A stretch of 52,709 nucleotides of DNA, counting the filler, from Dirinaria sp. TL-2023a (Eukaryota): assembly GCA_051941275.1 (NCBI GenBank). It is 3 parts of 3 records of this genome, joined end to end, with 100 filler letters (N's around TTAATTAATTAA, not from the genome) between each part and the next. Parts side by side here need not be neighbours in the genome. Positions count along the whole stretch, not along the records: positions 35,267 to 52,709 come from JAVEBF010000428.1; 2 more parts are not named here. One strand, written 5' to 3'. Below the pieces are notes generated by a model, which saw nothing but the letters and a program-made list of their open reading frames with translations, was not told the DNA's origin and made no database searches. The position numbers and the translations under genes are program-made. Shown here in pieces: positions 10,176 through 52,709 of this stretch. The first letter of the stretch is position 1. Every line of letters begins with the position of its first letter.

Positions 10176-10186
10176 CTCGGCCGAGA
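10176..10186 (-). promoter_or_regulatory. CTCGGCCGAG(A) palindromic element upstream of the MFS gene, copy 4
   Basis: Perfect 10-bp palindrome about 490 nt upstream of the MFS ATG. Confidence 0.55.
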
Positions 10187-10677: not shown

Positions 10678-12473
10678 ATGTCTTCCGCAGTCAGCCGTCC
10701 AGTTTCTCAGATAGACACCCCCTTGAAAGAGCTCTCCACCGTACATTCTGCTTTATCCGATCAAGATGGACAGAAACGGCTATCCCAATTCCTTCCCGAC
10801 AAGCACGATCAAGAAGCTGAAGAGCCGATGACCGCTGAAAGCGACATTGCTCAGGAAGTCCAGCAGAACCTGGGCCCGATCGCCCTCACTCTCCTTATGC
10901 TGGGGATATGCCTCGCTGCTTTCCTCGTCGCCTTGGATCGTACTATCATCGCCACTGCAATCCCACGTATTACTGACGAATTCGACTCACCTGGTGACGT
11001 CGGGTGGTACGGCAGCGCGTATCTGCTCACATCTTGCGCCTTTCAGCCTACGTACGGGCGAGTATTCGCCCAATTCAACGTCCGCTGGGCGTTCTGTATA
11101 GCCTTGGCGTTATTCGAATTGGGCTCTCTGGTATGCGGTGTCGCTCCATCCTCCAACGCTCTTATCGTGGGACGTGCAATCGCCGGGTTAGGCTGCGCGG
11201 GTATCTTCGCTGGCTGTCTTGTCATCATAGCAATCGTTGTACCATTGCGTAAGAGACCGATATTTATGGGCCTGGTAGGCTCAATGTAAGTACAGCTCCA
11301 TCCGTGCGGTCACCACTTCTCTCTACCTCATAACGCATTGTCTGACCTGCTTTGGCGTAAAACAGATTTGGTGTTGGATCAGTCTGTGGGCCAATCATCG
11401 GAGGTGCCCTCACATCCAGCGTAACGTGGCGTTGGTGTTTCTACATTAACCTCCCTGTGGGCGCCGTGACGTTCATCACTCTCCTCCTTTTCTTTAACCC
11501 AAAATCACAGCCTGGATCGAGCCGCATATTCCTGCAAAAAATCATGGCCTTAGATCTTGTGGGGAACTTCTTGCTGGTGACGGCAGTGACAATGCTCCTC
11601 TTAGCCCTTCAATGGGGGGGCTTAAATTACGCTTGGAACAGCGCCCACATCATCGGGCTCTTGATAGGTGCTGGCCTTGAAACAGTGCTATTTTTCTGGT
11701 GGGAGAGCTATCGGGGAGCAAACGCACTCGTACCCCTGCGAATGATACGCCAAAGAACAATTGCTTCAAGCTTATCCACCAGCTTCTTCATCTCGGGCGC
11801 TACGCTCGTACACGCTTATTATCTGTCCTATTGGTTCCAGGTCGTCCGGGATGACTCACCCACAAAGGCCGGCGTGAATACCATCCCTTACTTCGTTGGC
11901 AACTTCTGTTTTGCAATGTTAGCCGGGCTCTTTGTCACAAAATTTGGCTATTACAATCCACCCGCACTGCTTGGGCCTGTGATCGCGAGCATAGGATCTG
12001 GGCTCATTACGTCCTTCAACCTGCATACCAAAACCGCCGCGTGGGCCGGCTACGAGATACTAGCAGCAGGGGGCGTAGGTCTTTGTATCCAGCAGGGCAT
12101 TGTTGCTGTGCAGACAGTCCTCACACCGGATATGCTTCCAATAGGCACGTCTTTGATCATGTTTAGTCAGAGCTTGGCGGGCGCCGTCTTTGTCTCGGTT
12201 GGCAGTAGTCTGCTACGGAATGAGCTCGCCAAAGGCTTAGAAAAAGCGAATCTGCCTGGAGTCAATGTGACGGCCATACTCAACGCAGGAGCGACCGATT
12301 TTCGCGGCTTGGTGCCGGAGAGCGCCCTCGAAGCGACATTGACGATATACAACAGTGCGCTGAGCAAAGTCTTCATCGTAGCTATACCATTATGCTGTTT
12401 AGCCTTGCTAACGGCAATTCCAATGGAATGGAGGCATCTCGAAGGTCCGTCAGAGGGTAGGGCAGTAGAGTGA
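10678..12473 (+). CDS. MFS efflux transporter (DHA2, 14-TM; GliA/AflT-like); exons 10678-11285, 11366-12473
   Basis: Motifs LDRTIIATAIPRIT, WYGSAYLL, GRAIAGLG and WRWCFYINLP. Intron GTAAGT (11286)...CTGAC...CAG (11365) joins the two ORFs in frame. Confidence 0.9.
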
Positions 12474-13124
12474 AGCTCCCAGATCATTGCATGGGGCTCA
12501 GTACAACAACATGCAAAAATGAACGATTTCGAAATGTATTTTAGCTTGATACAAACGCTCTGCCGTTCCCCAACAAACTGTTGATTGGAGGTCCGTGCCA
12601 AGTGGACCAGCACCGATAGCCCGGGCGAAGATGATAACCACATGAACGGAACAGCGATGAATCAATCTTCCCGTGGAAGACTGTTGTTAAAGAGCAAACC
12701 TCCAGGGGTACCCCTCCGCGCCTGGAGGGCACAATGTAGCAATTACAGCCCGCAAAAGAAAGAAGGATGAATTCAAATCATGAGCGAGCCAAGCAATGAG
12801 CATATAAGCTTGGTGGCGCATGGGATAATGGTAGAAAAATGAATCAGCACGCTAACTTTAAGCCTTTGGGCTCGATACATGTAGACATCAATTGAATGGA
12901 AGCCAAAGCGTCATTCGTATAAGATGACAAAACTAGTATAGTCGTAGTCGTCGAATAGAGAATGGGGATAAAATCTAAGAGCTTGCACGATGATAATTCG
13001 AAGTGACCGGGAAGAGGTCAGCCAGTGCCGAAACCGGTAATCCAATAAGGTAGGTAACTACGGTAGGTACATTAGATAGGTAGACACTCATAAAGCCTAC
13101 AAGCTCAGTGTGGAGAGAAGTTGG

Positions 13125-13180
13125 TTCTCGGCCGGCTGACAGTACCTAGTGAAGGTCCGTTTTAGGGTTCGGCCGGAACC
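13125..13180 (+). promoter_or_regulatory. TTCTCGGCCGG (13125-13135) plus a variant GGTTCGGCCGGAACC (13166-13180) upstream of the decarboxylase, copy 5
   Basis: About 290-340 nt upstream of the decarboxylase ATG. Confidence 0.55.
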
Positions 13181-13464
13181 GCGTTCATGCAATTGACGTC
13201 ACTCAGAGAGAACAGTGCAGGTATGGCATACCTACGCAATGTAATGTAATGTAACTCTTATCTTATGCAAGTGCATTTCACCTGCCGCGAAGGCTGATAC
13301 GTGCCCGAATTTGCATTTATATGTAAGGTATTCACTACCTTATGCGTACTGAAGCTTCGACATATGAAGGGAGCCTTAACCTGCCTTTAGATCATTGTTC
13401 CACAACAGATAGTTATCAGCAAACAATTTCATCACTTTCATCCATTGCTTAACATCCTTTCACC

Positions 13465-14534
13465 ATGTCCCAAAATACACTTCAAAATGGCCATGCAAGT
13501 GTATCCAGAGTCGATGTCCACCATCACTTCATCCCACAGTGCTATGCAGAAGGTGCGTTTCCACCACAAATAATCCTGCCAGGTAGTATCACCAGCTAAG
13601 CCTACCCACCAAAGCGTTCCGTCAAAGCCATGGTGACCCTTCCGGCTGGAAGCTTCCCGAGTGGTCATTGTCCTCAACCACCCAACTGATGGAGAATCTC
13701 AATATCGGCACCGCTATCTTGTCTCTCACCGCACCGGGCTGCACTATTCTCAAGGGCCCTGCCGCTGCAACATTAGCACGCGAAGTCAATCTATCCGCAG
13801 CGTCAATCCGGAACAGCGATCCTCTCAAATTCGGCTTTTTCGCCGCCCTTCCCCCTATTCTTGACGACATAGAGGCTGCTCTAGCTGAGATTCGATATGC
13901 TCTGGACGAACTGAAAGCGGACGGGATCACGCTTTACACACGTTATGGTGCAGGCCATAACTACCTCGGCCACAAAGACCTGCAACCTATATGGTCCGAA
14001 CTCGACAAACGCTCCGCAGTCGTCTTCGTTCATCCCACGCACCTGGTCGACACCCAGCTTGTCAACCCTTTCCTACCGCAGCCCATGATCGATTATCCTC
14101 ACGAAACGACACGCACTGCCGTTGATCTTATCATGAGCAATACGGTCAGCAACTACCCGAATTGCAAAATCATACTCAGCCATGCTGGAGGTACTCTCCC
14201 ATACCTTGCAACTCGAGCGGCGGTCATGATACCAGACTATGGCCTTACCGACAAAGGTGCCGAAGATTTTCTAGAAGACGCTAAAAGCTTCTACTACGAT
14301 CTTGCTTTGTCCGGAAATAGGTATACAATGGGATTGCTTACCGAGTTTGCGCGGGAAGACCGCATTCTATTCGGCAGTGATTTTCCCTACGCCCCTACGC
14401 CTACCATCGAGACGCACACAAGACTTCTAGACGCCTGTGACCTCAATGAAAAGCAACGTCGCCAAATCGCGCAAACAAATGCCTTGAAATTGTTTCCGCG
14501 ACTGAAGACCAACTATAGTCATGCAACTGTCTAA
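13465..14534 (+). CDS. Amidohydrolase-superfamily aromatic acid decarboxylase, 6-MSA decarboxylase-like (PatG/YanB/MacB/AtA); exons 13465-13552, 13615-14534
   Basis: Exon 1 encodes the metal motif RVDVHHHF; exon 2 has [25 protein letters not shown] and [11 protein letters not shown]. Intron GTGCGT..AAG. It lies in the same cluster as the MSAS. Confidence 0.88.
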
Positions 14535-17562: not shown

Positions 17563-17662
17563 NNNNNNNNNNNNNNNNNNNNNNNNNNNNNNNNNNNNNN
17601 NNNNNNTTAATTAATTAANNNNNNNNNNNNNNNNNNNNNNNNNNNNNNNNNNNNNNNNNNNN
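17563..17662. other. Artificial contig/scaffold spacer (44 N + TTAATTAATTAA + 44 N)
   Basis: Exactly 100 nt with a six-frame-stop 12-mer; identical in layout to 35167-35266. Confidence 0.95.
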
Positions 17663-35166: not shown

Positions 35167-35266
35167 NNNNNNNNNNNNNNNNNNNNNNNNNNNNNNNNNN
35201 NNNNNNNNNNTTAATTAATTAANNNNNNNNNNNNNNNNNNNNNNNNNNNNNNNNNNNNNNNNNNNN
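35167..35266. other. Artificial contig/scaffold spacer (44 N + TTAATTAATTAA + 44 N)
   Basis: Same 100-nt layout as 17563-17662; it interrupts the SDR gene. Confidence 0.95.
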
Positions 35267-35725
35267 GGAGGGAGGGAGGCCGGCAAGTATACCCGTGGCA
35301 AATCGGAAATGTGCTGAGGCTGTTTGGGCCGGCTAGTGTGCATATGTATATGCATGATTCCAGCAAAGAATGGAAATCCAGGTATGGAGAAATTGGCAGG
35401 AGCCGGAGGAGTGGAGAGAGCGCGATGCAGCAGTGCAGAGCAAGCAAGGCATGGAACGTGGGATGCCGGCGCGTGCGAATTCTCCCTCTTCTTGGCTTTT
35501 GCAATGCTGTCATGGCTTCTGCGGACTGGTGTATAATCCTTTCGGGTGTTGCGCGCTCGCTCGCTCGGCTTCTTGTGGGAGCCATCTGTCGCTCGTTTCA
35601 CTCACCTTGTGTGCAACTGAAACCTCAGTTACTCTTCGTGGCGCTCGTCTACGCTCTTCTGGGATACATATAAGACATTGTATATGCCCGCCGCTTTTAT
35701 GCAGATCTGCTTGATCATACACCCT

Positions 35726-36442
35726 ATGTTGGCCTCACTCTGCCTGAGCCTCTCGGTCTTAATCAGTAGGTCATTGGCATCGCCAATCCAAACCATCTCT
35801 CCCAGAGATGAGGGTTGGTCGCTCTGTACCAACATCCCGTTCTCTATAGCCGGCCTGTACGTTTTTCATAATTTTCGCACTCTTCGCATGATACTGAATG
35901 ATACTCTTCGCATGATACTGAATGAAAATGGGATGTGTGTTTTTTGACCCATTTCGCACAGCTTCACACCTAACCCCACCGCCCCAGCAAACCTAAGCGA
36001 AGCCTCGCTCACAGGAAGGAAAAAACGGCAAACAACCACCCTGTACGGCATACCCCAATCCAGGCCCGTATGGTGCGCCGTCAACACCTCGACCTACATC
36101 CGCATCACGCCCGGCGGCTCACCATCGCTCAACGCCACCGAAGTAAATACCACATTGGCAAACTCAATTCGGTATATAAGTCGTGTTATCGAGGCATACG
36201 GGGATAGCACTGCGTTGTCCGATGGAGCACAGTTCTTGTATGCGGGTTATAATGACGTGATTCTGGCGGTGGATCAGACTGCAAAATGGTCGTTGACGTG
36301 GAAGATTATGCAGGATGCCGTGGCTGAGTTGTTGGATTGGATGATTGAGGCTGGGGGATTGGGGGCTGCGCAGTTCGATTTATATAATGGGCAGCACGCT
36401 GTTGGGACTGGCGCGGTAAAGTTTCGCCAGATTGAAGTGTGA
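35726..36442 (+). CDS. Small secreted hypothetical protein, about 200 aa; probable exons 35726-35856, 35962-36442
   Basis: Signal-peptide-like MLASLCLSLSVLISRSLASP; GTACGT..CAG intron gives an open frame to ...WSLTWKIMQDAVAELLDWM...FDLYNGQHAVGTGAV; NxS/T sites. The first exon boundary is uncertain. Confidence 0.6.
35879..35925 (+). repeat. 24-nt tandem duplication (ACTCTTCGCATGATACTGAATGA x2) inside the predicted intron
   Basis: Exact repeat read directly. Confidence 0.9.
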
Positions 36443-37347
36443 TTAAGTGTCAGAGAAGGGGAGGAAAATAGGGGTAAGGGGTTGTAGTTAGCCGGTTTTG
36501 AAAGGGTCGATAATCATGAGATTATTTCGTTCTTATCTAAATGTGTGCGTGATGGAAGATGGGAAATGATACAAGAGGGCCGCGAGAGGGAGCAATGTCG
36601 CTGGAGTGAACATTTCGAATAGGTGAAATTGAGATGTACATATGGTTTGGTGACGTTTAGAAAAGGCTTTGGTCACGCGAATATAAGCACCAACCTATTT
36701 TCTGCCCATCGAGGCTCGCTACCATTCTCCATCTACCTGATCTTGCATCAAATGGGGGATTTTACAACATGTCCTTTCTTCATTGCTTCCACTTCTTCAA
36801 GGAGCCGCTGCGGCTACTCCTCAATAGCAAGATCATGAGCAACGACCCAGCTGTGATTTCTGCACAGGTATATTGCTAGAGAGGTTCCAAGGCTCTGAAG
36901 CTGCTCTCGACTAGAGTCACTGTGGTACATAAGATTCTTTGCTGGGTGATGCCGTGGTGGTGGTTATCGACCTGAAATGGCAGATTAGCGGGTATTCTGC
37001 ATGGCGTAATGAATGACGATATTATGTTCCCATTAAGGTAGCCTGTACACCGTCCCTATGTTATGAAATCATGTAGGTGGTGCCTGGAAACATTGTATGT
37101 GGATGTACGGAGTACTGGCGTTAATTGGCACGACGTCGCTTAGAGGGCGATTTCCGAGGTTGTACCGACATGCAACTGAACCAACTACCGGCATCACGTG
37201 ACTCTTCTAGCTACAGTACATTGACGAAGAAAAGCGTTGATACTGTACAATGCGGTCTGATATGTAATTTTTTCCTTCCATTGAACTTAGAGCTTCTCTA
37301 AATTACACCTTCAACTGCCTATTCTTCTGTCAAGTCATCCGCCGTTT

Positions 37348-38447
37348 CTACTTTCCCTTCTTGCTACCGCTCCAATCCACCCGACCTGTCCAATCCACGC
37401 TATCCTCGTCGTAGTCCTGGCAGTACCGGTCCCAGTCAAAAAACTCCGTAATGTAGTCAGGTGCGGGGATGTTTGGAGTAGGAGAGACGCTTTCATCACT
37501 CGATCTTGGTGGTGTGATCACCATTTCCCCGAAAGGGATTGTTGTAGGCGCCCGCTCGACCTCTCCCAACCTCCCGGAGGCTTGCGTATTGGTATCCCTC
37601 TCTTCCATCGGTGTGATCGATTTTCCTCTGAACGGCATTGCTATAGTCTCCCGCTCCAACTGCCCGAACCCTCTGGAGGTCTGTGAATTGGCATCCCTCT
37701 CTTCCATCGGTGTGATCGATTTTCCTCTGAAAGGGATTGTTGAAGTCTCCCGCTCCACCTGCCCGAGCCTCCCGGAAGTATGTGTATTGGCATCCCTCTC
37801 TTCTATCGGCGTGATCGATTTTCCTCTGAAAGGGATTGTTAAGGTGTCCCGCTCCACCTGCCCAAATCTCCCGGAGTTCTGCGTATTGGCATCGTTTTCT
37901 TCATTGATAGATTCGGTTTCCATGTGCGACTCGCGACGGCGCATGATGCTAGCAAGCGAAAAATGGATTAGTCCAAGCATCCAACTATTGATTCGGATCT
38001 TTACCCTCTCTCGCTATCATCATGTGCAGGAACCGCATTGATAGGCGAATCCTGCGACTCTCGATGGCTCACATCCCTATCATGCAGAATATAGATTAGT
38101 CCAAGCCCCGAATCAATCTATTCGGACTTTTACCTCCTCTCAGAATCATCACTGGAAGGGACCACCTTGTCGACAGACAAGCGTCTGCTCGTCGTTGAGA
38201 GCTCTTGATCATAGCCGATGTCGGATACATTGCTATTTCCAGAGACAGGAGACGACTCGGAGTTGATTGCTGTGCCGGATTTGTTGGGCTCTTCAGACGC
38301 AGATGCATCTTGCTCGTTCTTTTCGAGTTCTTCTCCATGCTGGTTTTTGGAATCCATCATCAGCGCGGTTGATGTTTCTTGCATTCTGTGATCCTGACTG
38401 CTACAGTTGTCCGCAGCTTCTTCAGCGTTTGAACTCTGGTCAGTCAT
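37348..38447 (-). CDS. Hypothetical low-complexity protein with 33-aa tandem repeats, about 328 aa; exons 38447-38134, 38076-38005, 37948-37348
   Basis: Two similar phase-2 introns (GTAAA..GGACTAATC..TAG) link three open frames. C-terminus is aromatic/acidic (DYITEFFDWDRY). The start is uncertain. Confidence 0.55.
37507..37902 (-). repeat. Coding minisatellite, 4 x 99 nt (33 aa: EERDANTxxSGRxGQVERETxTIPFRGKSITPx)
   Basis: Anchor G(T/C)GTGATC recurs at 37512, 37611, 37710 and 37809. Confidence 0.92.
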
Positions 38448-38718
38448 GGTTGGGGTGTATCATGACTGGAAATGACTGTTGGAAAGAGCTCGTTAAATGA
38501 ATACTGAACGGACTAGTACGTGCTTCAATCATGCTCTTGTGAGATAGCTGACAAACCATTAGCGTACATTCAATGTGGCGGTCTTGTCACTTTTCCATGT
38601 CTTGCAAGTTTCAGGGACTGTTGTCATGTGTCAGACAATTTCAATTTCTTTGTGTTGTGAACACGCAAGGACACAAAGCCATCAGTGTCTAGTTCTATTT
38701 GTATCTCGATACCGTTGC

Positions 38719-40429
38719 TCACTGACGGTCAAAGCACGCTTCTTGAGGCTTAGCAACGGATGCCGATTCGCCAGTCAATAGAGACATTATAACCTCCGGA
38801 GACAAGTAACGTTGCCAGCTCCTCCAAAAAGGCACGAAAAGGTCCATAAAGCCTTCTGGACACAAGTATTTGCTCCACATATCGTAGGGTGGAAGCGATC
38901 CCAATCTTTCTGAACGGTCTGGAAGCTGGTCAAAAGGCGTTATTGTTGTCGAGGCAACCCTAAAAGCCGTCTTAGGTTGAAGCCTCGATGTAGCTCCACT
39001 ATGGTTGAGCCTCGATAAATTGGTAATGTTGTGCAAGCTGTCCAAGGTATGGCGCCTAGCTATTTCTTGCTGGGAATCGAGTAATCTACCAGGGGAAGCA
39101 AATCGTCGTGTCTCCGGCATCGTAACGCGGCGTCTTTGTGGAGCCTGCTGTGGATGAAGTGTACCATGAGGAAGCCGTGGAGGACAATTCCTTTCATGCG
39201 ACACCATCCCACTCGCAGTCAAATTTGGAGTACGAGCGGAGGTTTGAATTCTGGCTGTGGAATTTACTGGCATTTTGGATCGTCTCTGTGCCTCCGCAAT
39301 AATGTCGTCGATATCTTCAGCTTGCGACGATGTTCCGCTTGAACTGGAGCTCCAAACACGATTGGTATATTGGGCTCCATTTTTGGGAGCTACTGGCATT
39401 CCATGTGTTCTCCGTACGCTCGCAATGATACCGTCGATGTCCAGACATTGCGAAGCTGTTCCGCTGGCAGTCGGGCTTCGAACATCAGCGGTATACCGAG
39501 GCCCATTCTTGGAACTGATCGATATTCCGTCTTCCGTTAGTGCGCTCGCAATAACGTCGTCGATATCTGGACATTGCAGCATGTCATCGAATCCCAATTT
39601 TTGCGGGTCGAAAAAGTTGTCAACTTGACTGCTGGGTAACGTTCTCAGAGCATCAGTAACCTGAGAATCTGATGCTGCAGTCTTATCGTACAGAGCTGGC
39701 ATTTTCCCGCCGTTGAAGGATGGGTTGGACGGGTGTGTCGCGCTGGAGGGAATACGCGTTTGTCTAAGTTTTTTGATCTCCACGCAGTCTTCGGTTTCGA
39801 CCTGCGAAACAGTTCGCTTATGAGTCCTGTGGAGAGAATGCATAGGGTGTGTGGCTCCGCTGATCGTGCCGGCCGTCGGAGGAGCTGAAAGCTGAGACAT
39901 TGAAGAGATTGCATAAGGATTTCCAGCTCGTAGAGCAGGACTCGCACCAATTTGATTGTTCCCGACAATACCAAAAGCATCATCCAAGAGCACCTTAGAC
40001 GATTCGATCTTGATACGAGTATCAGCTGCCGTCGGGGAACATTGCGTGCAGAGCACTTACTGCCCCGTCAAGGCCTGTTTTGAGCGCCTCCAGCCACACT
40101 GGATTAGCCTCGACTTGTTCTATGCGGGTTAAGACAGCAATCTCTGCCGGTTCGAAGACAGCCAGTATCGTTTCTTTGTCCCAGCTGCCTTCATACGTGG
40201 GTATGAATCCCGAGAGGGGGTGATAGTACGTTGTGTCCCCAATTTCGTACTCCCAGACAGGTAGTAGACCGCCATTTATGGGGTTGAAGACAATCGGAGT
40301 AATCATCTTCGCGTTGTGCTGTTGGCTTGATCCAGCTGTTGGAGCTTGTGGCCGGAATCCACCTTGATGATTTGCAGCCGTCATACTTGGCTGCAAGTGG
40401 TGTGAGTTTGACCGAGACCTATCGGCCAT
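38719..40429 (-). CDS. Hypothetical protein with 42-aa internal repeats; exons 40429-40061, 40008-38719 (3' end uncertain)
   Basis: Intron GTAAGT (40060)..CTGAT..AAG (40009) joins the 135-aa and 445-aa ORFs in frame. No recognisable family. Confidence 0.55.
39199..39576 (-). repeat. 3 x 126-nt degenerate coding repeat (QxxDIDxxIAxx...TASG)
   Basis: GTCGAT(A/G)TC anchors at 39307, 39433 and 39559, spaced 126 nt apart. Confidence 0.85.
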
Positions 40430-41251
40430 CGTGTCGCAGGAAGGTTATGAATCTGTTGGGAAAGGCGTAATGATGTGTGTAAAGGTATGTGTAAAGACTC
40501 TTTACCTCGATTAAAGATTTCAGTTTTCGAGGTCTAGTTGATACTAGTTGTAAAAGAGTAATGGAAAGATCGCTGATGCAAGCACTGTTTGAGAATTTTG
40601 GGCAAGAGAAAGGATGGAGATCGGAGAAAGAACTTTATGTGCGAACAGTCTTGGTTCACTGATGTCATACGATCAACATGAGACTCTATTATCATTCACA
40701 ACACTCACCATGCCTATGAACTGTTTCAGGAGCCGAACAGTCAGAGTGAAGTGACAGAAATATGAAATACTGGACATTTCTGAATGCCTCGGTACACAGG
40801 CCTTTAACAATTGGTGGCTTTGCTTTATCCTAGGAATGAAGCAGTATAAATCAACAAGGACACACAAGGATGGTTGGTGGGAGATCTACAGTGATGCCTT
40901 ACCACGATATTACTGACGACAATGCCATGATATGAAGGCGAATACATTCAAAGCCTAGTGCAATCTATCTACCAGCTATCTCTTTTGCTGCACAAACTTC
41001 CTAATAGAGCATTCTTGCTTGGAAAGTGCAAAACAAGTATTTGGTAAACCACTCTTGTTCGCAATAATGGCAAATAGTCATCTTGATGGCACACTGTGGA
41101 AGAAGTTCTCCACTTCATCCTCTTTCGAAAGACGAGTTTGATTACGGGACTGCATCAGTTGTTCAAATAGCTGTACGCTTATCGTGCTTGGGCTATGCCC
41201 ATGGAGGAGAGAATGCCGGATCAGATATCTCTCCCTAAAGGTGTCACAAAC

Positions 41252-42136
41252 TCATGGATATGGGATCCGACCGCTGTTGTAGCCTTGAGATGGATCTATC
41301 AGACCGGGGGTGGAACCTCTTGTAGTGTTGTTTCTTCGCTGGTCCGGACTGAGCTCATCTAATACGCGCGAGTTGCTGGAAACAGATGGGGAGAGCCACC
41401 AGCTCAGCATGTAGAAAGAGGCCCGATGTCGAGATACACGCGAACGGAGGACATCCAGGCTTGGCTTGCTGTTGTTGCGTTCGATTCGCATATCGATGTC
41501 GATCCAGCGTACACGGGGATCCAGGCGGCGCCACGATTCCAAGACGAACCAGTGCTCCTGTCCACCAATCTAGAGTCGATTAGTGTTAGGAAATGAGATA
41601 TGAATGCTTGATTCACCTGATCCGGGAGTATCTCAAAGTCCAGTAGCGCGCGTGGCCTTCGGCCAGGCTCTGGGAAAGGCTCGAACATCAAATTACCCTG
41701 GCTGTCGGTTTTTTGAGCTGGAAGTGCCGACAACTTGAACTGCATCCACTGCGGGGTACGGTGAAGCTGGTAAAGGATCTATGAAGAGCTTCAGTGTTGG
41801 TCACCCTCATCGAGCGGATGAAAGGACAGACCTCGGGCATTTGGTGCTTGGACCAGTGACGTTGCCTGACAACATTATTAGATAGATACAGAAGTCACTG
41901 GATATACAAGGCGACTTGCCCATATTGGAATTCGGTCACATCTGTCGGTGTCGGCCCAACAGGACGCGGCTCGACTGAGAGGACGTCAGGGTCACTTCAA
42001 GAAGTATTTTTACTGGAGGGCACTCACCATAAGCGGTACGACCGCCAGGAGGGATTACCTTCTCCCTCGCAGCTACAAATTCAGGTTGGTAGTACCAAGG
42101 CAGATGATGGCCGATGGGCAAAGCATTAGCCGCCAT
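41252..42136 (-). CDS. Uncharacterised family paralogue A, about 225 aa; exons 42136-42028, 41974-41920, 41865-41832, 41778-41617, 41569-41252
   Basis: The frame is restored with four introns (intron 2 has a GC donor). Motifs QRHWSKHQMPE-ILYQL, LESWRRLDPRVRWIDIDMRI and NTTRGSTPGLIDP are shared with paralogues B and C. Confidence 0.75.
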
Positions 42137-43173
42137 GCTAAAGATGGGCCTTCAATACACAGCACTACAGTAATTGGGCGGATTCAAGAGATATGTGCAA
42201 CTGAGCTCGATGCTTTTCAAAGATCTTGAAGTCCACAAGTTCGTAAGAAAGAGCGCGGGCTACGCCTCATGGAATGAAGAAGGGACGGGAAGAAAAAGAT
42301 GCCTATGGGGTGTTATGTGGCGAATGTCGGGGAAAACAGGAACCCATGTCCCTTGCAACACGAAAGCTGCCTCGATTCACTTCTGGCAGAAGCGGGCTAA
42401 AACTTTACGAGCTTGGTAAACACTCAAACAGCGCTAGCTTATTGCTGTATACATTAAGTGGAGTGGCATCTAGTCAATGAGGTCTTGTTTCTTTTACAAG
42501 GGGCTCTTGACAATATTCGAAAGAATCCCGCAGGACTCTGTCATTGAAGGCTGGACGCCGTCGATGGATTCGAATAGATATGATCATGGTTCTCCTTGAG
42601 GAGACTCTGGTTTGACGAACGTAGGCTAAAACCCGTCTTTGAGGGCGAATGATGCATATTTGAGGCTCTTTGATCTCCAACGTAGCCTTGGTCAGCGCGC
42701 CCAGTATCAGCAGTATTGGAAAAAGGCCCAAAAACGAGCGATGATACTAGTCGTAATATAGCCACCATTTCTGCAAGGGGTCCATATGGACAATGGTCAC
42801 CTAATGCTTGGGTATGGCAGATGGAGTAGGCGGGGAGGTTGGGAAAAGACGAACAAATGCTTTTGAATGCAGGAGATTCCTCCTCTAACGGTCCATCGCA
42901 CGCTTCTAATTAAAAACCACCTTGCCCCGATCTCCATCATGGCCAGGAGTGGGCTCTCATTCCTCTATACACAATTGTAAACTCCTGCAGTTCAGGAGAG
43001 ACATCCTTCAATGATGCCAGGTCCCATCGGACAAAACCAGCCATCACTCCTCCACTTCACCTTTTGCCTCGGTATCTAGGGCCATATTCAATCTCCTCGG
43101 ATGCTCCATAGAGCCCTCACACTCTGTGATATGATGTGGTTGTTGGGGTGGGCTATCCGGATTGTCAAGCTGT

Positions 43174-44426
43174 CTAGAACATGTAACGGTTGTTGGGATT
43201 TGAAGAGGTGGCGCGGTCGCCCGCGTCGTCGTCTTCTTCGAAGTCCCAGTGGGCGTCCTCCTCGTTATACTCATATCCTCTTTCAAAGTATGGAGTGTCC
43301 TCGGGGTTCTCTCCTTCATCCATATCCTCTTCGTCAGGCTCGTCATTGGCGCCATGATTCCCCGGTGTCGTGCTCTGACCAACAGACCTGGAGCCGGAAC
43401 GAGGCGTCGACGCTGTTGCACTGGATCCATGAGGAATTTGACCCGGCCCTACATGGCCGGGCTGCCACCTGATAGTTCTGGTGAGGCCTTGGAACCCATC
43501 TGGTATTGGCGGCCGTCTTGGAAAACCTTCGTCCTGCCCTATATTAGGGAATGGGACTATTTGGCTTCCTTGTCCTTGGGCGGGGTTGATCAGCCCAGGC
43601 GTGGTGCCCCTTGTCGTATTGTTCTGTCTCTGCAACGGCGTCAAGAGATTCTGAACTCGCACGTTCTCAGGGCTTTGTCGTAGATCACCTCGCCAGAACC
43701 AAGTGGTGATGTTGTAGAGACGTCTCCAGGTACGAAAGCAGTGCATGTTATAGTTATTTGCGTTCGATCGACCGTGACGTTGCATCCTCATGATTAAGTC
43801 ATTCCACGTAATACGTGGATCCAGGCGTCTCCAGGCCTCCATGAGCAATGGATGCTCTTGTGTACTTATCTGTCATTCGGTATTAGCAGCTGTGGCACGT
43901 AATGAGGTCTACATCGCACCTGGTCTATGTTGGCCAGGACAGGGAAATCCAACAACGGTCTCGGATTGGCAGGGTCGTCAGGCCACTGCTCCCACATAAG
44001 TCGCCCTTGAGCGTCACGCTTCTGCCGGGCCCTTCCTTTGTTCGCCTTAAAATCGAGCCACGCTTGGTCCGGGAACAACTGATATAAGATCTGGGTAAAG
44101 GATTAATGGGAGGCGTCGATGACAAAGTCGGAGTGTACTTACATCAGGCAGGTTGGTAGCGCTCCAGTCCCATTGGCTTGAGATGAGTGTCAGCAACTAC
44201 AATAGACACGAGATGGGGGACGAATTTTTACCCTGCTTGAAAGCCTGTCACATCTCCACCGTCGACTCCTGCACGTCGAGGATCTCCTAGTGCTTGTCAG
44301 ATGCCAGTCTTTGTGAAAGAAGTTTATTGGCTTACGGTAATGGGTCCATCCTCCTGGTAATACCTGCGTACGACACGCTTCAGCGTATCGAGGATCCCTC
44401 TCCCAAGGTAAGCCGACGTTTGCCAT
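43174..44426 (-). CDS. Uncharacterised family paralogue B, about 348 aa; exons 44426-44336, 44286-44232, 44176-44143, 44090-43920, 43869-43174
   Basis: QWDWSATNLPD-ILYQL, MEAWRRLDPRITWNDLIMRM and NTTRGTTPGLINP, followed by an acidic tail. Confidence 0.78.
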
Positions 44427-47400
44427 GTCTTGCTAGCCTTTGGTGCGAACGGAGTACAATCTTTGTTCCAGGCAACACAAGTCTGTTCTACAGAAACGTT
44501 CTCGAGCACTCCTATTCGCAAGCTTCGCAAAGGTGCAAGAGTCTAAGAGAGCGTTCTGCAAACTCCGTCACTCCTATAGTCCGGGTCTTCGAAGCAGGGA
44601 ACTTGAAGTACGGGTCCTCGAAGCCTGGAGTTATGCTGAAGCAGCCGCAGAAAGTGCTCCCAAAGAACGGACCGAATAGACACGATGGAGATGGCGCACT
44701 GCAAGGCGACAGCTATACCAGGGAGCAACGGTTTGTTGATACTCGTATGCTCAGGCTTTATGAAGGTAAACGGTGTGCAGACACGGTGGTTGCCAAAGCT
44801 GCTGAGCGAGTGATCTTTCCGAGCACCAGTATACTCTGACTGAGCCGAGGAAGTAGGAAAGCTGATGCGGCCAAAGAAGAAGCGTTTAGAGAAGCAGCCT
44901 CTATCAATGAGCTTGAAGCTTTGAAAAGCAGCAGGCAAAAGCCGGGAAGAGGTCCGGCGGCACCAGTATGCTCAGGAGTTGTGGACGAAGAAGGTAAACT
45001 GATGCGGTCACAGAAAGAGCTCTCGAAGAAGTTGTCTCTATGGTTTGATGGGCTTGAAGCTTTCAGAACCAACGAGCACGATCGGGAGGGGAAGGATCGA
45101 GAAACGAGTATGCTCAGAGTCTGTGGAGAAAGAAGAAAGAAGCTGGTGTGGAAGGAGGAGGAAGAAAGAAGCAGGTGTGGAGGCAGAAAGGGTTCTGAAA
45201 GACTTATCTCGCTTCGCCTCGCTTGATGAATGGAAAAGTGGAGCCCTGGACCTTCAACAATATCAGTGATATGCATGGGCTCAAATATGGCCTTCGCCTC
45301 ACTCATCAGGACCCACTAGGTCGATAAGACACAGATGCCTATTAGCCCGTGTTCGAATTCATCTTCTTAACACGAATAAGCGAGTGATCAAGCAATCCCT
45401 GGAGAGTCATGCCCTGTCTCTTGCCAATGATAGGGCAAGCCATGTCACATGACCGACACATTGATACCAGGGGAGAGCCTGACTGGGCTAGGCAGAGTGA
45501 TGTCTTATGCTTCCTTAAACACCAGAGTTCCAGGACCTCCTCCGGGGTGTCGAAGTCATATAGTATACTTACCAGGTCCGGGGGGGATGACGAAGCTACA
45601 GGCTTTGTATACGAGGCTCTCTTGGGCTTACGGATCCACCTTTACCTTGTCCTGATGCATGGCCTCATATAAGACGCCTCTGACTTGGGGATATGCTAGA
45701 GTTAGTCTCGTACCGAGCCGATCCTAGCTATAGAGTATATATTGCGGCGTTCAGGGATCAGGCTCGCTCGTCAGGCAGTGTGGGCGCCACACCCTTGTCC
45801 TTCTTCACAGCTTGATAGGGCTTTAGCTGCCGTGGCTCTCGACCGACCTCTGGCCGCCTTAAAGCAGGTCCGGAATGAATTTCCCTTCTTTCACTTTATG
45901 CACCCCTGGCTAGATATGCAGACCGTCGATTAAGGCCCCGCAACCAGTATCCGAGGTGAGTATTATGCAGAGCGTTCCGGGATCCGGTCGATTGGACAGC
46001 GTCTAGTACATCCCTGTCCTTCCCAACCGCTCGATGGTGAAGAGCAATGGGGGGGGGGGGCCTCGGCTCTGCTCGTTTCCGCCTTAGGTACGTGGTTGAA
46101 CCTCTTTTCTCCTCATTCACCTTTTGTGTGACACCTGGACAATGGCAGCGGCTGGTATGTATATATCGCAGTTGTTCCGGGATCAGGCTTATCAGACACG
46201 GGCGTCTAACACATCCTCGTGTCTCTCAACAGCTTAGGTGGGGCTACTGCTCTGAAGAAGCTGTTATTCATGCCTCTGACCCACCACCACCCATGTTCTG
46301 CCTTACCTTAGACACGTGCCGACGACCTTTCTTTCTTCTATACTTTTGCTCATGCAGTTCATTTCACTCGTTAAAAACCCCCTGTCCGTCCCAATAGCTC
46401 GATAAGTAGTTATAGCCCCACTCTGAAATGAAATGAAATGCCGTCGTACTTCGACCTCACATCACATGTACCGTAGTAAAATCTCTCTCTTTAGCTAAAC
46501 CCGATATAACAATCACCAGCAGCATGCGAGGCTTCAGCCACAAGCATCTGAACCGCGGCTCAATTCCTGAACCCTGCCTCGCATCTACGTAGAGCAATGC
46601 AGGCAACCAGTATAACCGCGGTCAGGTTCTATGAGTGCGGAGCCACTAACGTAAGATACGTGCAGGCTTCATTCGGCGTTTGTTAATCCATGACTTCATC
46701 TGGCATTCTCATATGGTGCTTCACATACCCCCACTTTCCTTTTTTTGAATGTTCGCGTGGAGGTTCATAGGTGCGAGTAGGGAATTCATTATCATTTCAC
46801 TTAGTGACTCGCTTGGAGGGGTTTTTTTTTTTTTTTTTTTTGAGAGGTTGAGGTTTAGGATCGATGGAAGCTATGGGCGGTGAATAGTATTCCATAGATC
46901 AAAAGTACTTCGTGAGTGGAGATGAATTCTAGGAGTGGATTGATAGGCGGGGGATCGAGAAGCGGATATGGGATAGTTTTTAGGTGGTCTTTTTCTTTCT
47001 ACTGACTTGACTTAGATAAGGCTGTTACTGATGCTTTAAAAAGGGGAGGAGTTGAATAGGTGAGGCTAGCTTTTGAGCATCCAGATTTGGAATGAGGGAT
47101 GGGATGGATTGGTGCATGTTAGATTTAGGAAAGAATATATTTGATGCTGCATATACATAAAGCGACAAGGGACAATGAAACTTACTGTCACTTAATACCT
47201 TCTTAAGCAGGGCTTTCATCGAATGGAATGCCTCTTACTACATCGTATCCTGCTTTATATTCTCCCCTTAAATCCTCAAAATACAACCCCGACTCCCTAC
47301 CAACCGTTTCAATCTCTTCGCAAAATCACTCGCATGACAAACACGGCGTCACGGACGTCAGCAGTGTCCCCCCCCCCTCCACTTTCCTCTCGCGCCTAGA

Positions 47401-50400
47401 GACTTACTATTATATATCCTAGCAGCCTGCTATCGTCCTCTGCACAACTTCCCTCGGTGTAGCAGCTTTAAGAGCCTGCCTCAGTCCGTTCCCTTCTACC
47501 AACGCCTTTACTTCGGCTATACCTCACCTTCAATCATCACCAGTGAAACGATGTTCGCCGAACCAGGAACAGGATCTCCGTTGATCCCTGAGGTTTTGGA
47601 TCGTGGGAGACACGCTCACAGGCAATGGGTTCTTGTGTTGTGGTTGCGAGAATTGAAGCAAGCGGTTGGGAGATGGAAGGGGTTTTGGAGGGGGGGAGCG
47701 GCTCGTGTTTGCTGCTGCTGCTCTGGCTGTTGGTGGTGATTGAGGATGATGAGTTGATGGGTGGACGTACGGAGGTATGCACTGAGGAATTGAGACTGGC
47801 GGAAAAGCTGGAAAGTGTGATGGAGGACCAGATTATGGGTATGAGCTGTGTTGGGTATAGCTGTGACGGGAAGTTTGAAGTTGAAGGGGTGTTTACTTTG
47901 CTGCTGGACATGGCGGTGGGAGTGCTGAGTGGGTGGTATATATGTCATGTGGAAAGAGGAAGATAGGGGGAGATAGGACAGTGGAAAGCTGTAAGGAGAG
48001 ACTGTAGGAGAGAGCAGAGCGAACAGTGGGCAGCAATGGCGAGAGTTGGTAGTGGCTGCTGGATGACAAGAATGCAAAAGTGATTGGGGAGATCAGTGGT
48101 CACTCCGTGGAGGTTTTATAGACGAAGAAAGCGGTGCTGGTTATGAAAGGCAAACATGAGCTTGGTCCTCGGTCTGATGCCATGAGCCGGAGCTCGATCA
48201 TGAATTTCATGCTTGGTTTTAAAATACAGTTTTGCTGAGAGGAACAGCACTCCAATCTCTGCGGTGTAACTGCTCTGGGTTTGATTTTGCATGTTGTAGA
48301 GTATCTTCATTGCTTTTGTGCCTCAGGAGACAAGTGGAGAGTGGTGAAAATCACCCTGGGCGCGTGACTATTCAAGCCCGCCTTTTTGCATTTGATAGTA
48401 TGGGTCGTAGATATTCAAAGCTCAATGGTCTAGCGAACCGGTCGAATTATCCCCCGATCGAGTTTCGAAGTGATGCGCAGGATTGTTGGAAGGGCATGTA
48501 TTGGAGGTAATCTGAGACGCTGAAACAGCCATCATCGTAATGGCATAGGTCATAGTACTCAATACAGGAGTCGCTGGGTCTCTTAGGGGTCGAAAGCTCG
48601 AAGAACTTGCCAGGAGATCCTCTGCTTTCATGATAGCCTGGCATTGATGTGGACATATTTCAGAACTGTGACAACTTCGACGTATGCCATTTGGTTCAAC
48701 TGAACATCCATCTGGAGCATCCAATCGAATGGTTGAAAAAGACAGCACTTTGCCTTGTGATTCGCCTGAATGTAACTTGATCCAGTTCCAGAGGACCTGG
48801 GTTGAAAGCGTTCTAGACTGTGGCTAAGCGACGAAGAGAAAGTCTTATCCGTTATTTCTGGGCTCCTAAAGAGCAAGTAAGCAAATGTATCTTGGAAACT
48901 GGAAGAGAGATTGCGAGTAAAGACGCCTGTTCAACTTAGCTATTCTTCTGGCCCTGGAAAAGGTCATGCTGAAAGAGTGGGATGCGTTCAGTAAGTAATA
49001 TCAGGCTTGCATGCTGATTTGTATAAAGCTCATCCATCAAAAATAGAGAACATGTGGGTCTGAGTTCTAGGTCAATGCTCAGCTTCTGCTTCTAGAGTCC
49101 TGACAGGATAGTGCTGTATCTGGGTGATAACTCCCAAGGACATCACTGTGCTTTAGCACTGTTTGGATTCCTCAAATTACCCATCTGCTCGGGTATTTGA
49201 GAGCACGCTAAATATTAAATGTTGATCGTTTTGCATTCCGTTCTCACAATTTCTAAGCTTCTCATACTTTCTATACACTTGAGTCCATAACTTCAGCTTA
49301 TAAGAATAGCACTTAGCTTTGGAGTGAAATTGAAACTTTGACGCTGAATTTTCTGTGCATATCACCCGCCATGCTTCCCTCTTGGTAATGAAATTTTGCT
49401 CAATAATTCAAGGAACTAGCAATATACTGACAGGTTCTTAGATAATCCTGACAAGCACCCATAGCTCCAATCATTTCACGCATCGATCCAGATAATAATG
49501 AGCTCTCTGGTGCTTACCTCCTATCATCTCACTGACAGCCCCAAGATACTCAGACAGACATCGATCTTCTTCTATAAATGAAAGGCCGAACCCTTCTCCT
49601 TCAAGGCTCCAAAAATGAGACCCGAACTGTTTGTCCAGAGGCATAAAATGAACGCTTTTCAATGCAAGCTCACAGACGGATTCTCTGCCAAGAACTGGAC
49701 TTCCTCGTTAGCTTGGTCTATCGCCCTAGCCTCTACAGCACCCAAGACTCTGAAAAGCACCCTCAAAAAAGTATTATACAAGGAAATGGTAGCTACAAAT
49801 CCATTAGAAAATGAAGAAGGCCAAGCATTGAACAAAGTTTCGTGATCTACAGAATAAAAGCAAGCCAAATACGACCATCATATCAACGCCGCAGTCGGAT
49901 TCCAAGATTCAACTGTTGTAGAGCTCAGCTACACGCAGACTGTGCATTACAATACTGTCAAGATCCACAAAGCGGTATGGAGGACTTCAAAAACGCTATG
50001 TAGATGCTCAATCAGTCCATACTGTGCAATACGCGATACCCTTATCATTGGACAGTGAAGAAAAAACTGTAATGAAGATGCCAATGCGCATAGAAGATAC
50101 GGAAAATCAAGACTGCACTGGAAGCTTTCCTAAGCAACTGCAGCATAAAGAGTTGCAAATATAAGCTCCGTTCTCGGCTCACTGAGTCTATAGCAACGGT
50201 GTCTCGATATTCCCTTACAGTCTACTGGATCTTCCTGTCCATGTTCCCCTGTTGATGAAAGATAGCGACACAATCAATACCTCGGCAGGAGCGATTCCTA
50301 TATTGACACTCATCTTCGCTAGTTTACAGCACATCGCCAGATCTAACTTTGTGTCTAAAACCAAACCTCGTTCATCTCGGCACATACAATATGTTGATTG

Positions 50401-51616
50401 CTGCTTCTGTGAAGGAAATGAGATAGTCGGCATTCCCAGAGGAGCTTCAATGTGCTGTATAATCTCGCTTCATGCTGTGTTGGTCTCTTCATTTGGAATA
50501 GAAGGACGTATGACTGGTCGTGCCGTCAATCGAATCTATTTAAACCGCAGATTTTCTTAGACTTGCTCACATACCTGAATTGCATACCTACTCCCGCCAA
50601 ATCTTCTCTTGTCTCCAACATGATTTGCATGGTTCGTGCTATACTGGTCTTTATGTGTAAAGCATGTCTACCTCCAAAGTGGGCTTCCATTAAGCTCCTT
50701 ATCTTAATCTTGAACCCTTTGGTCCTTGATCATGAGTGATTTACGATGGATTCGTGACTTGAGGCCTCACATGGCCATGTGTCCAAATGGGCAAAATCTG
50801 TTAAACCACCCCTCATGACTCCAGAAGCAAACAATCCAGTCCGCCGAGCCATCTCGCATGACAAGGTAAGCAAGCCAGATGAGGAGACAAAGCAGCTCAG
50901 GTATAAAAATACTCACTCAGACCACAGACATACACCCATCTTATAGAGAGCCATGCATTCCCAAAGAGCCACATACATGCCCGAACTTCTATGATCGTCA
51001 CTTAATAGAGTCGTGCAGCCCAGATTCAAATCTGTACGAGAAGCCATAGCGTTGCGACCGCACTCTACTTGGAAGCTTTCCAAGGTGACTGCTAGTAGCG
51101 GAAACCATGTCAGCCTTCTTTCGCGCAGCCATTAGAAGATTGAAAAGGATCTCGACCTCCAGCAGCACGGCTGACCGCTGTTCCTATCTAACAAATCGAT
51201 TTCAAAAACAAGGACCAAGCATGCTTAGCTTACCAAGTCAGCGAGCTTACTCGTTCTTCGAGGAGGCTAGCAACACACAGACATCACTCGTCAACTCCCG
51301 CACTTCGTCAACCTACTCTGAAAACACACAGAAGCCTCATTCAGCGGGTGTTGCGGTCCAAGTGCTGCTATTCGCCCTTTTTTTGGTGATGGAGAAGTTC
51401 AAGTGTTGCAATGGTGTTATTGTGAGCCCCTACTTGAACTCGTGTCTAACTATATATACTTTTCTTCCTCCAACTCCAAGTTCAGCACCTCTGCTCGTAA
51501 CTGTTCTCTCAAGACTCCTGCTACATCAGCACTCGCCAACGACTGTAGGCAGAAGCGGCACCTCTCATATCTTCATTGATCATTTACTATTCTACATCTT
51601 TCTTCACTCGAGCAAC

Positions 51617-52709
51617 ATGTCTTGGACTGGGCCCTGGCAGCAGAATCCTGAGGTGATTGAGGCGAGCCGTAGCCACAGACTCCCCAATGACCCAGTGGAT
51701 TACAGTGAGATCTCCAAGCTTATCCTGTGGCATGTAAGCTAATTTTTGCAGCGGGGCCTCGCCGTGTTGGACGTACTGCTGACGATAGGACGTCGTTCAA
51801 GCCTGGGTATGCTCTGTGTGTTTCTGCACCTGAACAGTGTCTTGCTAACACAGTATAGACAAGCACATTGGCACAAGGAGAACCTGCCTGCCGTGAGTAA
51901 AGTTTCGACCATCATGTGATACCTGCTTACTCGCATACAGATCCTCTACCAGCTAAACCCCACGCGTGCATGGCTCGAGGTCAGAGACAAGAAGGCACCA
52001 AATATGTACAGAAACGGTGTCACGGTCAAAGAGCCGTACCCGGACGATCCAGAGCATCCCCGGGAAATGAAGGACCTGCCAATTCTGCCAGATCGAGTAA
52101 GTTTCCTCGGTGCTCTCTCATAACCAGCGTCCCTGACCCCCTTAGATTGGCACCCAAGAAGAGGAGTGGTACTTCGAGGCCATCCGCCGCCTCGACCCAC
52201 GAGTACGCTGGATCGATTTCGTCATGCGGATGAAGAAGGAGGACCGACCAGACACCAACGCCCTCCAATGGCGTCTTTCCCGTGGCTGGCGCGAGGCATT
52301 GTCATTGAAGTCCTGGCACCTCACGAGTGACCGCGGCAGAACCGGCAATGCTACCGCCAACAACCGCATCGATGCTCGTCTTTCGCAAAGACAGAGGGAC
52401 GACAATACGACCCGTGGAGCAACGCCGGGGTACATCGACCCCCATAACCGGAGTAGGGGGCCTAACAACGAGAACTGGGTGCCATGGCCAAAGAGCAGGA
52501 CAGGGAGGGAGTGGGGTATAGCACCGAAGACGGACTATGGCAGGAAGCCGCGCAAGGATGCGAAGAACAAGCGCAGGAGAACAGAATATCCAGCTACTGA
52601 AGGCCCAAGCAACATCTTGAAGCTACGTGGTGCGCAGCAGCAAATTAGCCAGGCGCCTTCAGTGCCTCCTGCAAACTCCACCGGAACATTGCTGCCGTCT
52701 TCCTTCCCA
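51617..52709 (+). CDS. Uncharacterised family paralogue C, 3'-partial; exons 51617-51704, 51752-51806, 51859-51892, 51941-52096, 52146 to window end
   Basis: QAHWHKENLPA-ILYQL, FEAIRRLDPRVRWIDFVMRM and NTTRGATPGYIDP; the frame stays open to the window edge. Confidence 0.75.

Follow-up and report, generated by a model that had tools for sequence, protein, structure and literature searches.

The window, that is, the whole 52,709-nucleotide stretch of DNA that was analysed, consists of three unlinked contigs joined by linker, and real genomic context is therefore limited to positions 35267-52709. This part, from a lichen-forming fungus, contains three genes of five exons each. Gene A (41252..42136, minus strand; exons 42136-42028, 41974-41920, 41865-41832, 41778-41617 and 41569-41252, of 109/55/34/162/318 nt) encodes 225 aa and comprises a domain without a tail. 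Gene B (43174..44426, minus strand; exons 44426-44336, 44286-44232, 44176-44143, 44090-43920 and 43869-43174, of 91/55/34/171/696 nt) encodes 348 aa, and gene C (51617->52709, plus strand; exons 51617-51704, 51752-51806, 51859-51892, 51941-52096 and 52146-52709, of 88/55/34/156/564+ nt) encodes 299+ aa and is cut by the contig end. Intron phases are 1,2,0,0 in all three genes, introns measure 47-55 nt and there are no internal stops. Every intron is GT-AG except intron 2 of A, which is GC-AG; an 18-nt first intron considered for C was rejected as it causes a frameshift. In all six genes that were modelled, namely A, B, C, a fourth copy D (G000:C903) and two orthologues on contigs L026/L027, the four introns fall at identical alignment columns (37, 56, 70 and 127). 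The equivalent intron positions and phases reported in the preliminary description are thereby borne out. Its exon lengths of 55 nt for exon 2 and 34 nt for exon 3 hold for A, B and C but not across the family, as exon 3 of D has 43 nt and exon 2 of the A orthologue on L027 has 58 nt. Nor are the genes unrecognised, as had been stated, since GenBank already lists A, B and C as the consecutive 'hypothetical proteins' Q9191_003578-003580, these models being gene predictions and not RNA evidence. Q9191_003579 (P0001) is identical to the full gene B model, Q9191_003580 (P0016) to residues 1-271 of C and Q9191_003578 (P0018) to residues 64-225 of A. Spliced frames, intron columns and GenBank models together confirm A, B and C, at the level of sequence, as real five-exon genes.

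The three domains are 40-44% identical to each other (BLASTP E 1e-45 to 1e-51), with pN of 0.41-0.43 against pS of 0.75-0.85 and silent sites that are saturated. These values show A, B and C to be under purifying selection and agree with the earlier proposal of old duplications kept by selection. An orthologue of A on L026/L027 is 60% identical over the domain and an orthologue of B on L026 is 54% identical. It is barely credible that the genes are pseudogenes or that their splicing was mis-predicted. The case for this would be that A requires a GC-AG intron and no longer has the acidic tail seen in six A-type relatives, read-through of its stop into 57 open codons having given no convincing homology to those tails. 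It is opposed by the open frames, by pN far below the saturated pS, by intron columns identical in another species, by copies that encode the same protein without introns (L029, G000:C397) and by the independent GenBank models.

Downstream of the B-A tandem lies a gene to which no function was assigned (38719..40444, minus strand) and which gave no match in a Pfam scan. On L026/L028 the same tandem is also followed by a conserved counterpart of this gene's first exon (43% over 44 aa, window 40264-40133 against L026 11481-11612, tblastx), meaning that order and orientation of the tandem and the next gene are kept in another fungus. A further gene with 33-codon tandem repeats (37348..38013, minus strand) has a weak collinear match to its C-terminal end on L028 (42% over 24 aa). 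The accessory region in which the genes had been placed is unlikely on account of this synteny. It is likewise very improbable that the genes derive from or are carried by mobile elements, be it as the DNA-binding domain of a transposase or as Starship cargo, the latter being opposed by the collinearity with L026/L028. A Starship has as its captain a tyrosine recombinase with a DUF3435 domain and varies in presence and absence; no match to the captain was observed in 13 scanned frames of the contig, which covers 17.4 kb only. A mobile origin could be read from broken fragments of family genes on at least five contigs of the same genome, and from the weak structural matches of the gene C core, to which MuA, SETMAR and Pax paired domains belong. 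Against it, domains of transposases, integrases or recombinases were absent from Pfam scans of 144 + 28 homologues, intron positions, orthologous genes and gene order are conserved between species, no relatives were found in phages and none of 10 pattern matches in viral contigs was confirmed.

A search with a profile of the family resulted in 1,293 clusters at 50% identity (E<=1e-3) among 1.84 billion, 627 of them at E<=1e-10, and the best 150 of the 1,293 representatives were examined. Among the matches listed, named members occur in Lecanoromycetes, Candelariomycetes, Coniocybomycetes and Eurotiomycetes. Aspergillus and Histoplasma both hold members, and Aspergillus has an adjacent pair of family genes of its own. 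With members in at least four classes of Pezizomycotina, the term lineage-specific used previously is not supported. No Pfam family matched A, B, C or their homologues (86+58 proteins at E<=0.01; 28 at E<=1), so that the check proposed for the spliced proteins, a match to a well-characterised family, returned none and the earlier failure to assign a named family stands. Literature searches by topic, locus tag and motif turned up, in the parts consulted, no description of the family, and the accessible portion of PMC6652019 does not mention it, the supplement of that paper on expanded families being a place that may bear on novelty. Several candidate relatives were discarded. L030 was a chance bacterial-like match (68% GC, 14-16 residues), ESM Atlas returned unusable hits for exon 5 of A (aminotransferase fragments at <=0.88 with few shared features) and for B 1-228 (a hypothetical ascomycete cluster at 0.79), and sequence searches of the PDB gave PadR-like LmrR at E 0.21 and low-complexity noise. 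The best explanation of the sequence data is that the three genes are ancient paralogues within a large, unnamed Pezizomycotina family that is also present in moulds and is without a Pfam model.

The fold of the family domain was predicted with AlphaFold2. The model of about 225 residues reached a pLDDT of 87.8 and a pTM of 0.84, with five models within 1 point. Comparison of the whole domain model with 48,161 PDB chains (VIA) gave no match at Z>=2, which is no proof of a new fold, and Foldseek gave none at E<=1e-3 in PDB or BFVD. Within the domain of C, residues 112-172 (52146..52328, plus strand) appear from the predicted fragment and from conservation to form a three-helix, helix-turn-helix (HTH)-like core, corresponding by alignment to approximately 43690..43869 in B and 41390..41569 in A (both minus strand). 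This is where the preliminary description had seen a helix-turn-helix-like segment, and three helices are indeed predicted there when the 61 residues are modelled in isolation (fragment positions 7-16, 22-27 and 37-51; pLDDT 80.7). Three-helix bundles of 60 residues are a common arrangement. Out of the 48,161 chains, 346 matched the core at Z>=2 and none at Z>=5, with 41-58 residues aligned at 2.3-5 A rmsd for matches at Z 2.7-3.7, the latter being the best value. These include Pax6 (Z 3.6), StbA (Z 3.5, rmsd 2.7 over 50) and ParB (Z 3.0, rmsd 2.3 over 43), as well as the Myb-type GT-1 (Z 3.1), Reb1, Myb1 and MTA1 (Z 2.8 each), which are level with other HTH classes. Roughly 35 of the 50 best matches are, judging by their titles, what we take to be HTH or winged-helix proteins, and five of the six Foldseek rows for the core were Pax or TRF1 DNA-binding domains, none of them significant. 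An HTH-like three-helix bundle is consistent with these matches, all of which are weak. A prediction of B in complex with C, made without alignments and with an uncertain fold of the partner, gave a score (0.00) that speaks neither for nor against pairing.

The core is also the site of the most conserved basic residues. Across 138 sequences, conserved positions in the core of C are E122, R126, D135, R139, N149, R154, R157, R160 and W168, with R157 (96%) and R160 (93%) on or adjoining predicted helix 3. The half of the domain that holds the core is net positive in 116/133 proteins as opposed to 51/133 for the N-terminal half, and strict NLS-like motifs were counted in 62/120 tails compared to a mean of 15 (maximum 29) in 200 shuffles, where the regular expressions are coarse and the proteins share ancestry, so that neither count consists of independent observations. 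Transmembrane-like stretches were seen in only 5/136 proteins, and A, B and C are without a hydrophobic N-terminus. In the Aspergillus paralogues helix 3 differs while helices 1-2 are alike. The tail of C carries a basic cluster that may act as an NLS (residues 244-256; 52542..52580, plus strand), present at the same place in the orthologue P0045. That of B is acidic with interspersed aromatics (43225..43344, minus strand) and resembles, by analogy, an acidic activation domain.

Taken together, predicted shape and charge slightly favour the view that the unnamed family consists of nuclear regulators that probably bind DNA. In such proteins the N-terminal folded domain, of about 200-225 residues, would hold the HTH core (residues 118-162 in C) with a long and irregular arm on its N-terminal side and, on its C-terminal side, a helix that bears an N-T-T-R-G motif; the tail that follows would be disordered and vary in length. 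Nuclear entry would be directed by basic clusters in this tail, and helix 3 (N149, R154, R157 and R160 in C) would be the recognition helix on DNA. The tail would then set the output, activator-like where acidic and aromatic as in B, and long and basic in C, while the tailless A could compete or repress. Repeated tandem duplication combined with change in helix 3 may have diversified the targets. Transcription factors typically have such a layout of one folded domain and a long tail that is acidic or rich in Q/P/S. Nuclear location, DNA binding and regulatory output are here all read from models and motifs, and to this extent the nuclear part of the earlier idea of DNA- or chromatin-binding proteins appears likely, on the NLS-like motifs and the basic core.

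Other functions would use the same domain differently. The proteins may be nuclear adaptors that bind proteins, chromatin complexes or RNA, with the HTH core as a scaffold, as in PCI, ESCRT-II and SANT, and its basic face turned to an acidic partner or RNA. We consider this fairly doubtful. Non-DNA-binding winged helices are found among the same weak matches (those of ESCRT, PCI and cullin, which presumably do not bind DNA), as is the SANT region of MTA1; the NLS-like motifs are equally compatible with adaptors, and a large part of the domain outside the HTH is conserved (T43, W52, P58, P109, N198 and T200), which typical DNA-binding HTH domains lack. Against DNA binding by helix 3, the invariant R126, D135, R139, R157 and R160 could instead constitute a buried salt-bridge network. 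The adaptor reading is countered by positive charge in the HTH half and not in the N-terminal half, by clustering of the most conserved basic residues on helix 3, by differences in helix 3 between paralogues and by a layout of domain plus tail that is generally typical of transcription factors. Improbable, to a further degree, is an enzyme of new fold whose active site, made up of the invariant E/D/R/W/N/T residues, would act on a substrate that is phosphorylated or a nucleic acid. The lack of a structural match for the whole domain, the several invariant polar residues and the loop-rich fold would agree with catalysis. The core however resembles an HTH, the conserved columns contain no His/Cys/Asp metal motif, and metabolic enzymes do not typically show a high copy turnover or tails that are long, disordered and fast-evolving and carry NLS-like motifs.

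If the proteins are indeed nuclear regulators, they represent an overlooked class of DNA-binding gene regulators. Catalogues of fungal transcription factors are built on Pfam domains, and a family of more than 600 strongly matching clusters without a Pfam model is thus invisible to them, in species that include Aspergillus niger, A. oryzae, A. fumigatus and Histoplasma. Further than this, it is possible, although the chances are somewhat below even, that the family constitutes sequence-specific transcription factors of fungi that have escaped recognition as a class, with a new fold in which a conserved, loop-rich shell surrounds an HTH core, and that it extends from Aspergillus and Histoplasma to lichens. 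Tandem duplication would have taken place independently in moulds and lichen fungi, with an expansion to at least seven genes in a lichen genome, where an activator/competitor module would be made up of clustered paralogues whose tails are acidic, basic or absent. Should the domain be an adaptor only, the family would still be new to Pfam, though its interest would be more modest. As the predicted domain has no solved structural relative it is a good structure target, and the adjacent pair in tractable moulds opens to direct testing a family whose expansion lies in lichen fungi that are hard to culture.

The known systems closest to the proposed regulators are HTH proteins, and it is distinctly unlikely that the family belongs to a named fungal HTH family, either Clr5 (PF14420) or Myb-like, as a distant and elaborated branch that acts alike in silencing or transcription. 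Clr5, a domain with a role in silencing, is likewise a small, helical fungal domain with helix spacing that is similar by eye, and 5 of 120 listed Eurotiomycete homologues are named 'Clr5 domain-containing' in UniRef. Such names are automatic; the Clr5 Pfam model matched none of 28 proteins at E<=1, the five labelled ones included, and two Clr5 domains of the same genome were no better than shuffles against the family HTH profile (200/200 and 9/200 shuffles as good). Clr5 moreover spans 54 positions compared to about 190-225 for the family domain. With Myb/SANT proteins (PF00249, PF13921; Reb1, TRF1 and the GT-1 trihelix) the family shares a predicted three-helix bundle and an N-terminal DNA-binding-like domain followed by a disordered tail, and Myb structures are among its weak matches. 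The Myb/SANT-like character suggested earlier holds as general HTH resemblance and not as Myb signal, which was absent from Pfam, profile-profile and profile-sequence comparisons. Myb Pfam models matched none of six window exons, 10 proteins at E<=1, 86+58 at E<=0.01 or 28 at E<=1, and Myb was absent among the 25 of 45 Pfam families listed for 130 members at E<=10. Alignment of 161 family domains with 18 Myb repeats of the same genome, a shallow profile, gave a probability of 0.24% in hhalign (16/100 column shuffles and 30/100 block shuffles were as good), and none of the 18 repeats beat all 200 shuffles against the family HTH profile. Myb/SANT cores are formed by three regularly spaced conserved tryptophans or aromatics; in the HTH region of the family W168 alone is invariant, with W119 at 57%, W124 at 55% and position 133 below 50% in 138 sequences. 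The family HTH is in addition a single copy embedded in a larger fold, and in structural comparison of the model winged-helix, paired and Lrp domains score at least as well as Myb. With the tri-helical HTH superclass as a whole (paired box/Tc1-mariner, MuA, ParB/StbA, Lrp/AsnC and winged helices) the family shares, in the predicted core, helix order, similar helix lengths and a basic helix 3, and differs in showing no sequence similarity and, as compared to transposase-derived members (Tc1/mariner, Mu), no DDE/D catalytic domain in the 144 + 28 homologues. The HTH-like core of the family is instead about a quarter of a domain of some 225 residues that matches nothing in the PDB at Z>=2.

Gene structures for A, B and C, the three family genes on the third contig, were built from splice signals. 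A (42136-41252, minus strand) has exons of 109, 55, 34, 162 and 318 nt, B (44426-43174, minus strand) of 91, 55, 34, 171 and 696 nt, and C (51617 to the contig end, plus strand) of 88, 55, 34, 156 and at least 564 nt. Intron phases are 1,2,0,0 and intron sizes 47-55 nt throughout, and the spliced frames contain no internal stops. A requires one GC-AG intron (41919-41866); its GenBank model begins 3' of this intron at an internal methionine (residue 64) and is probably truncated. The three genes are already deposited as consecutive hypothetical proteins on a 17,443-base contig of Dirinaria sp. TL-2023a, and the deposited models equal ours for the whole of B, residues 1-271 of C and residues 64-225 of A. 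These being independent gene predictions, the agreement is at the level of prediction. The open frames and matching models bear out the five-exon genes with 55-nt and 34-nt exons set out in the preliminary description. The roughly 175 codons that stay open just ahead of C (51089-51616), in frame with its start, probably do so by chance, since homologues and the GenBank model begin at 51617.

A, B and C share 40-44% protein identity (E 1e-45 to 1e-51) across some 220 residues, and silent sites are saturated (pS 0.75-0.85) versus a pN of 0.41-0.43, showing that they are old copies under purifying selection, as had been proposed; next to no probability attaches to their being pseudogenes.

At least seven members in this genome seem to be intact: A, B, C, D, two copies on contig C397 and one on C515, the last and the second C397 copy being counted from open exons. 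D, on C903, has the same four introns and a final exon of 776 codons, and the C397 copies lie on one strand with about 8 kb between them. Broken fragments occur on C30, C625, C735, C1038 and C1785; they are short, with 76-91% DNA identity to D or a C397 copy where detectable, and C625 combines pieces from two subfamilies, separated by about 1 kb. There is only a faint chance that the family originated in mobile elements. In a metagenome scan 5 of 145 pattern matches were confirmed, one of which (L030) was then rejected as a family member. Contig L026 carries orthologues of B and then A, similarly oriented, whose introns fall on the four alignment columns used by A, B and C, and collinearity extends to the gene downstream of the tandem (43% over 44 aa). 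In metagenome contig L029 and the first C397 copy only the first intron is retained within the domain, the N-terminal folded region. This confirms the spliced frame independently, and it indicates that the 55-nt and 34-nt exons, which hold for A, B and C, mark one subfamily and not the whole family.

The window consists of three unlinked contigs, and adjacency across the N44-TTAATTAATTAA-N44-type spacers (17563-17662, read directly, and 35167-35266, assigned by the same N-run pattern) is artefactual. The polyketide genes on the left are therefore not neighbours of A, B and C. On the first contig, 1031-14534 encodes a KS-AT-DH-KR-ACP polyketide synthase, a Pyr4-like terpene cyclase, a cupin, an MFS transporter and an amidohydrolase, and from this gene content looks like a meroterpenoid cluster; the middle contig (17892-35055) encodes a non-reducing PKS (SAT-KS-AT-...-ACP-ACP-TE), a P450 and a short-chain dehydrogenase. 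The third contig has, at 37348-38013, a gene with three to four copies of a 33-codon repeat, about 80% identical in DNA, and an acidic terminal stretch rich in tryptophan; this gene is weakly collinear on metagenome contig L028. An imperfect direct repeat lies upstream of B (44823-45135; period about 137 bases, 68% identity).

A 172-position profile was searched against 1.84 billion 50%-identity clusters and matched 1,293 representatives at E<=1e-3, of which 627 also passed E<=1e-10 and 22 passed E<=1e-30; the best 150 of the 1,293 were examined. An organism name was found for 15 of 20 clusters looked up: Dirinaria (2), Candelina, Trapelia, Villophora, Piccolia, Sclerophora (2), Chaenotheca, Malbranchea, Aspergillus, Paecilomyces, Ascosphaera, Thermoascus and Stereocaulon. 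The classes represented are Lecanoromycetes, Candelariomycetes, Coniocybomycetes and Eurotiomycetes. A search with the Aspergillus member gave 132 hits; the 120 listed were from Aspergillus, with A. niger, A. oryzae, A. terreus and A. fumigatus among the species, and from Onygenales (Histoplasma, Blastomyces, Arthroderma). The names obtained, which cover a minority of the 1,293, include none from Penicillium, Sordariomycetes, Dothideomycetes or yeasts. Two paralogues have adjacent locus tags in three Aspergillus species (BBP40_006313/4, ABOM_001121/2, CNMCM5793_008656/7), and further pairs among these matches lie on contigs of equal size. In a midpoint-rooted FastTree tree of 162 domains, which excludes proteins with fewer than 135 profile positions and most Aspergillus-query hits, A, B and C each cluster with sequences of other sources (supports 0.93, 0.97 and 0.995). 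The two clades of Aspergillus paralogues are sister to each other (0.96), and the opposite half of the tree contains the C397 copies. By this grouping, tandem duplication occurred independently in moulds and in lichens. Two annotated proteins, P0251 (Aspergillus affinis) and P0047 (Villophora), hold two domain copies, the second in P0251 of a more divergent type, and may be merged neighbouring genes.

As the preliminary description had stated, no named family can be assigned: Pfam scans of overlapping protein sets, 86 + 58 proteins at E<=0.01, 28 at E<=1 and 130 at E<=10, gave no match that reached a cut-off. AlphaFold2 was run on C 1-271 with an alignment of 138 sequences and gave a loop-rich model (pLDDT 87.8, pTM 0.84), confident to about residue 235, with predicted helices at 6-16, 59-75, 118-127, 133-137, 148-162 and 173-196. 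Foldseek found no match in PDB and BFVD at E<=1e-3, and none of 48,161 chains reached Z 2. As unmatched models typically reach a best Z of 7-8 by the search tool's own note, this blank is unusual, a new fold not being thereby proven. An enzyme is considered very improbable. Folded alone, the segment singled out in the preliminary description (61 aa) gave a predicted three-helix bundle (pLDDT 80.7) whose matches number 346 chains at Z>=2 and peak at Z 3.7, short of 5; roughly 35 of the 50 best are HTH or winged-helix proteins, judged from titles. Foldseek returned six non-significant rows, namely Pax (four), TRF1 and PH0140, an Lrp-type protein; Pax6 gave Z 3.6 with an rmsd of 3.4 over 51. An HTH-like core is thus plausible, with several HTH classes as candidates. 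Of the Myb/SANT-like helix-turn-helix suggested earlier, the predicted three-helix bundle with weak, HTH-rich matches stands, and Myb membership is not borne out by sequence. Five homologues are auto-labelled 'Clr5 domain-containing' by UniRef, but sequence tests of Myb and Clr5 membership failed, and a remote Clr5/Myb branch is regarded as improbable.

Near-invariant residues are R126, D135, R139, R157, R160, W168, N198 and T200 (C numbering), and N149, R154, R157 and R160 lie along predicted helix 3, the recognition-helix position. Of 133 proteins, 116 have a net basic HTH half and 51 a net basic N-terminal half. The tails have few hydrophobic residues, TM-like stretches are scarce (5 of 136), and strict NLS-like motifs occur in 62 of 120 tails (shuffles: mean 15, maximum 29). 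We lean, with modest confidence, towards nuclear regulators: NLS-like tails would place the proteins in the nucleus, helix 3 would contact DNA and the variable tails would act as effectors of regulatory output. The main alternative, a protein- or RNA-binding adaptor, is considered rather unlikely. The tail of B is acidic with scattered aromatics, and that of C opens with a basic cluster common to its orthologue. A ends at the domain boundary (stop 41252-41254), an acidic tail being kept by six A-type relatives; the 57 open codons beyond its stop have no homology to those tails, and A is possibly a domain-only competitor. A second domain of about 100 residues terminates tails of one subfamily (L022:4481-4800 on C397, P0005-P0009, P0047, P0054 and others), with 41 matches among fetched sequences, many near-duplicates, and no Pfam match; visual inspection suggests a similar segment in a separate ORF next to the copy on C515 (L074:6422-8071).

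The literature covered, namely listed titles, abstract openings and passages of PMC6652019, with few subscription papers among them, gave no description of the family. Three genes with common introns are what duplication ordinarily leaves; the novelty lies in the large family behind them, which has no Pfam model. It offers a confidently predicted domain without a solved relative and occurs as two adjacent genes in Aspergillus species that are tractable, together with an expansion in a lichen fungus. Overall, the family is best described as putative regulators of the HTH type whose structural setting is new.
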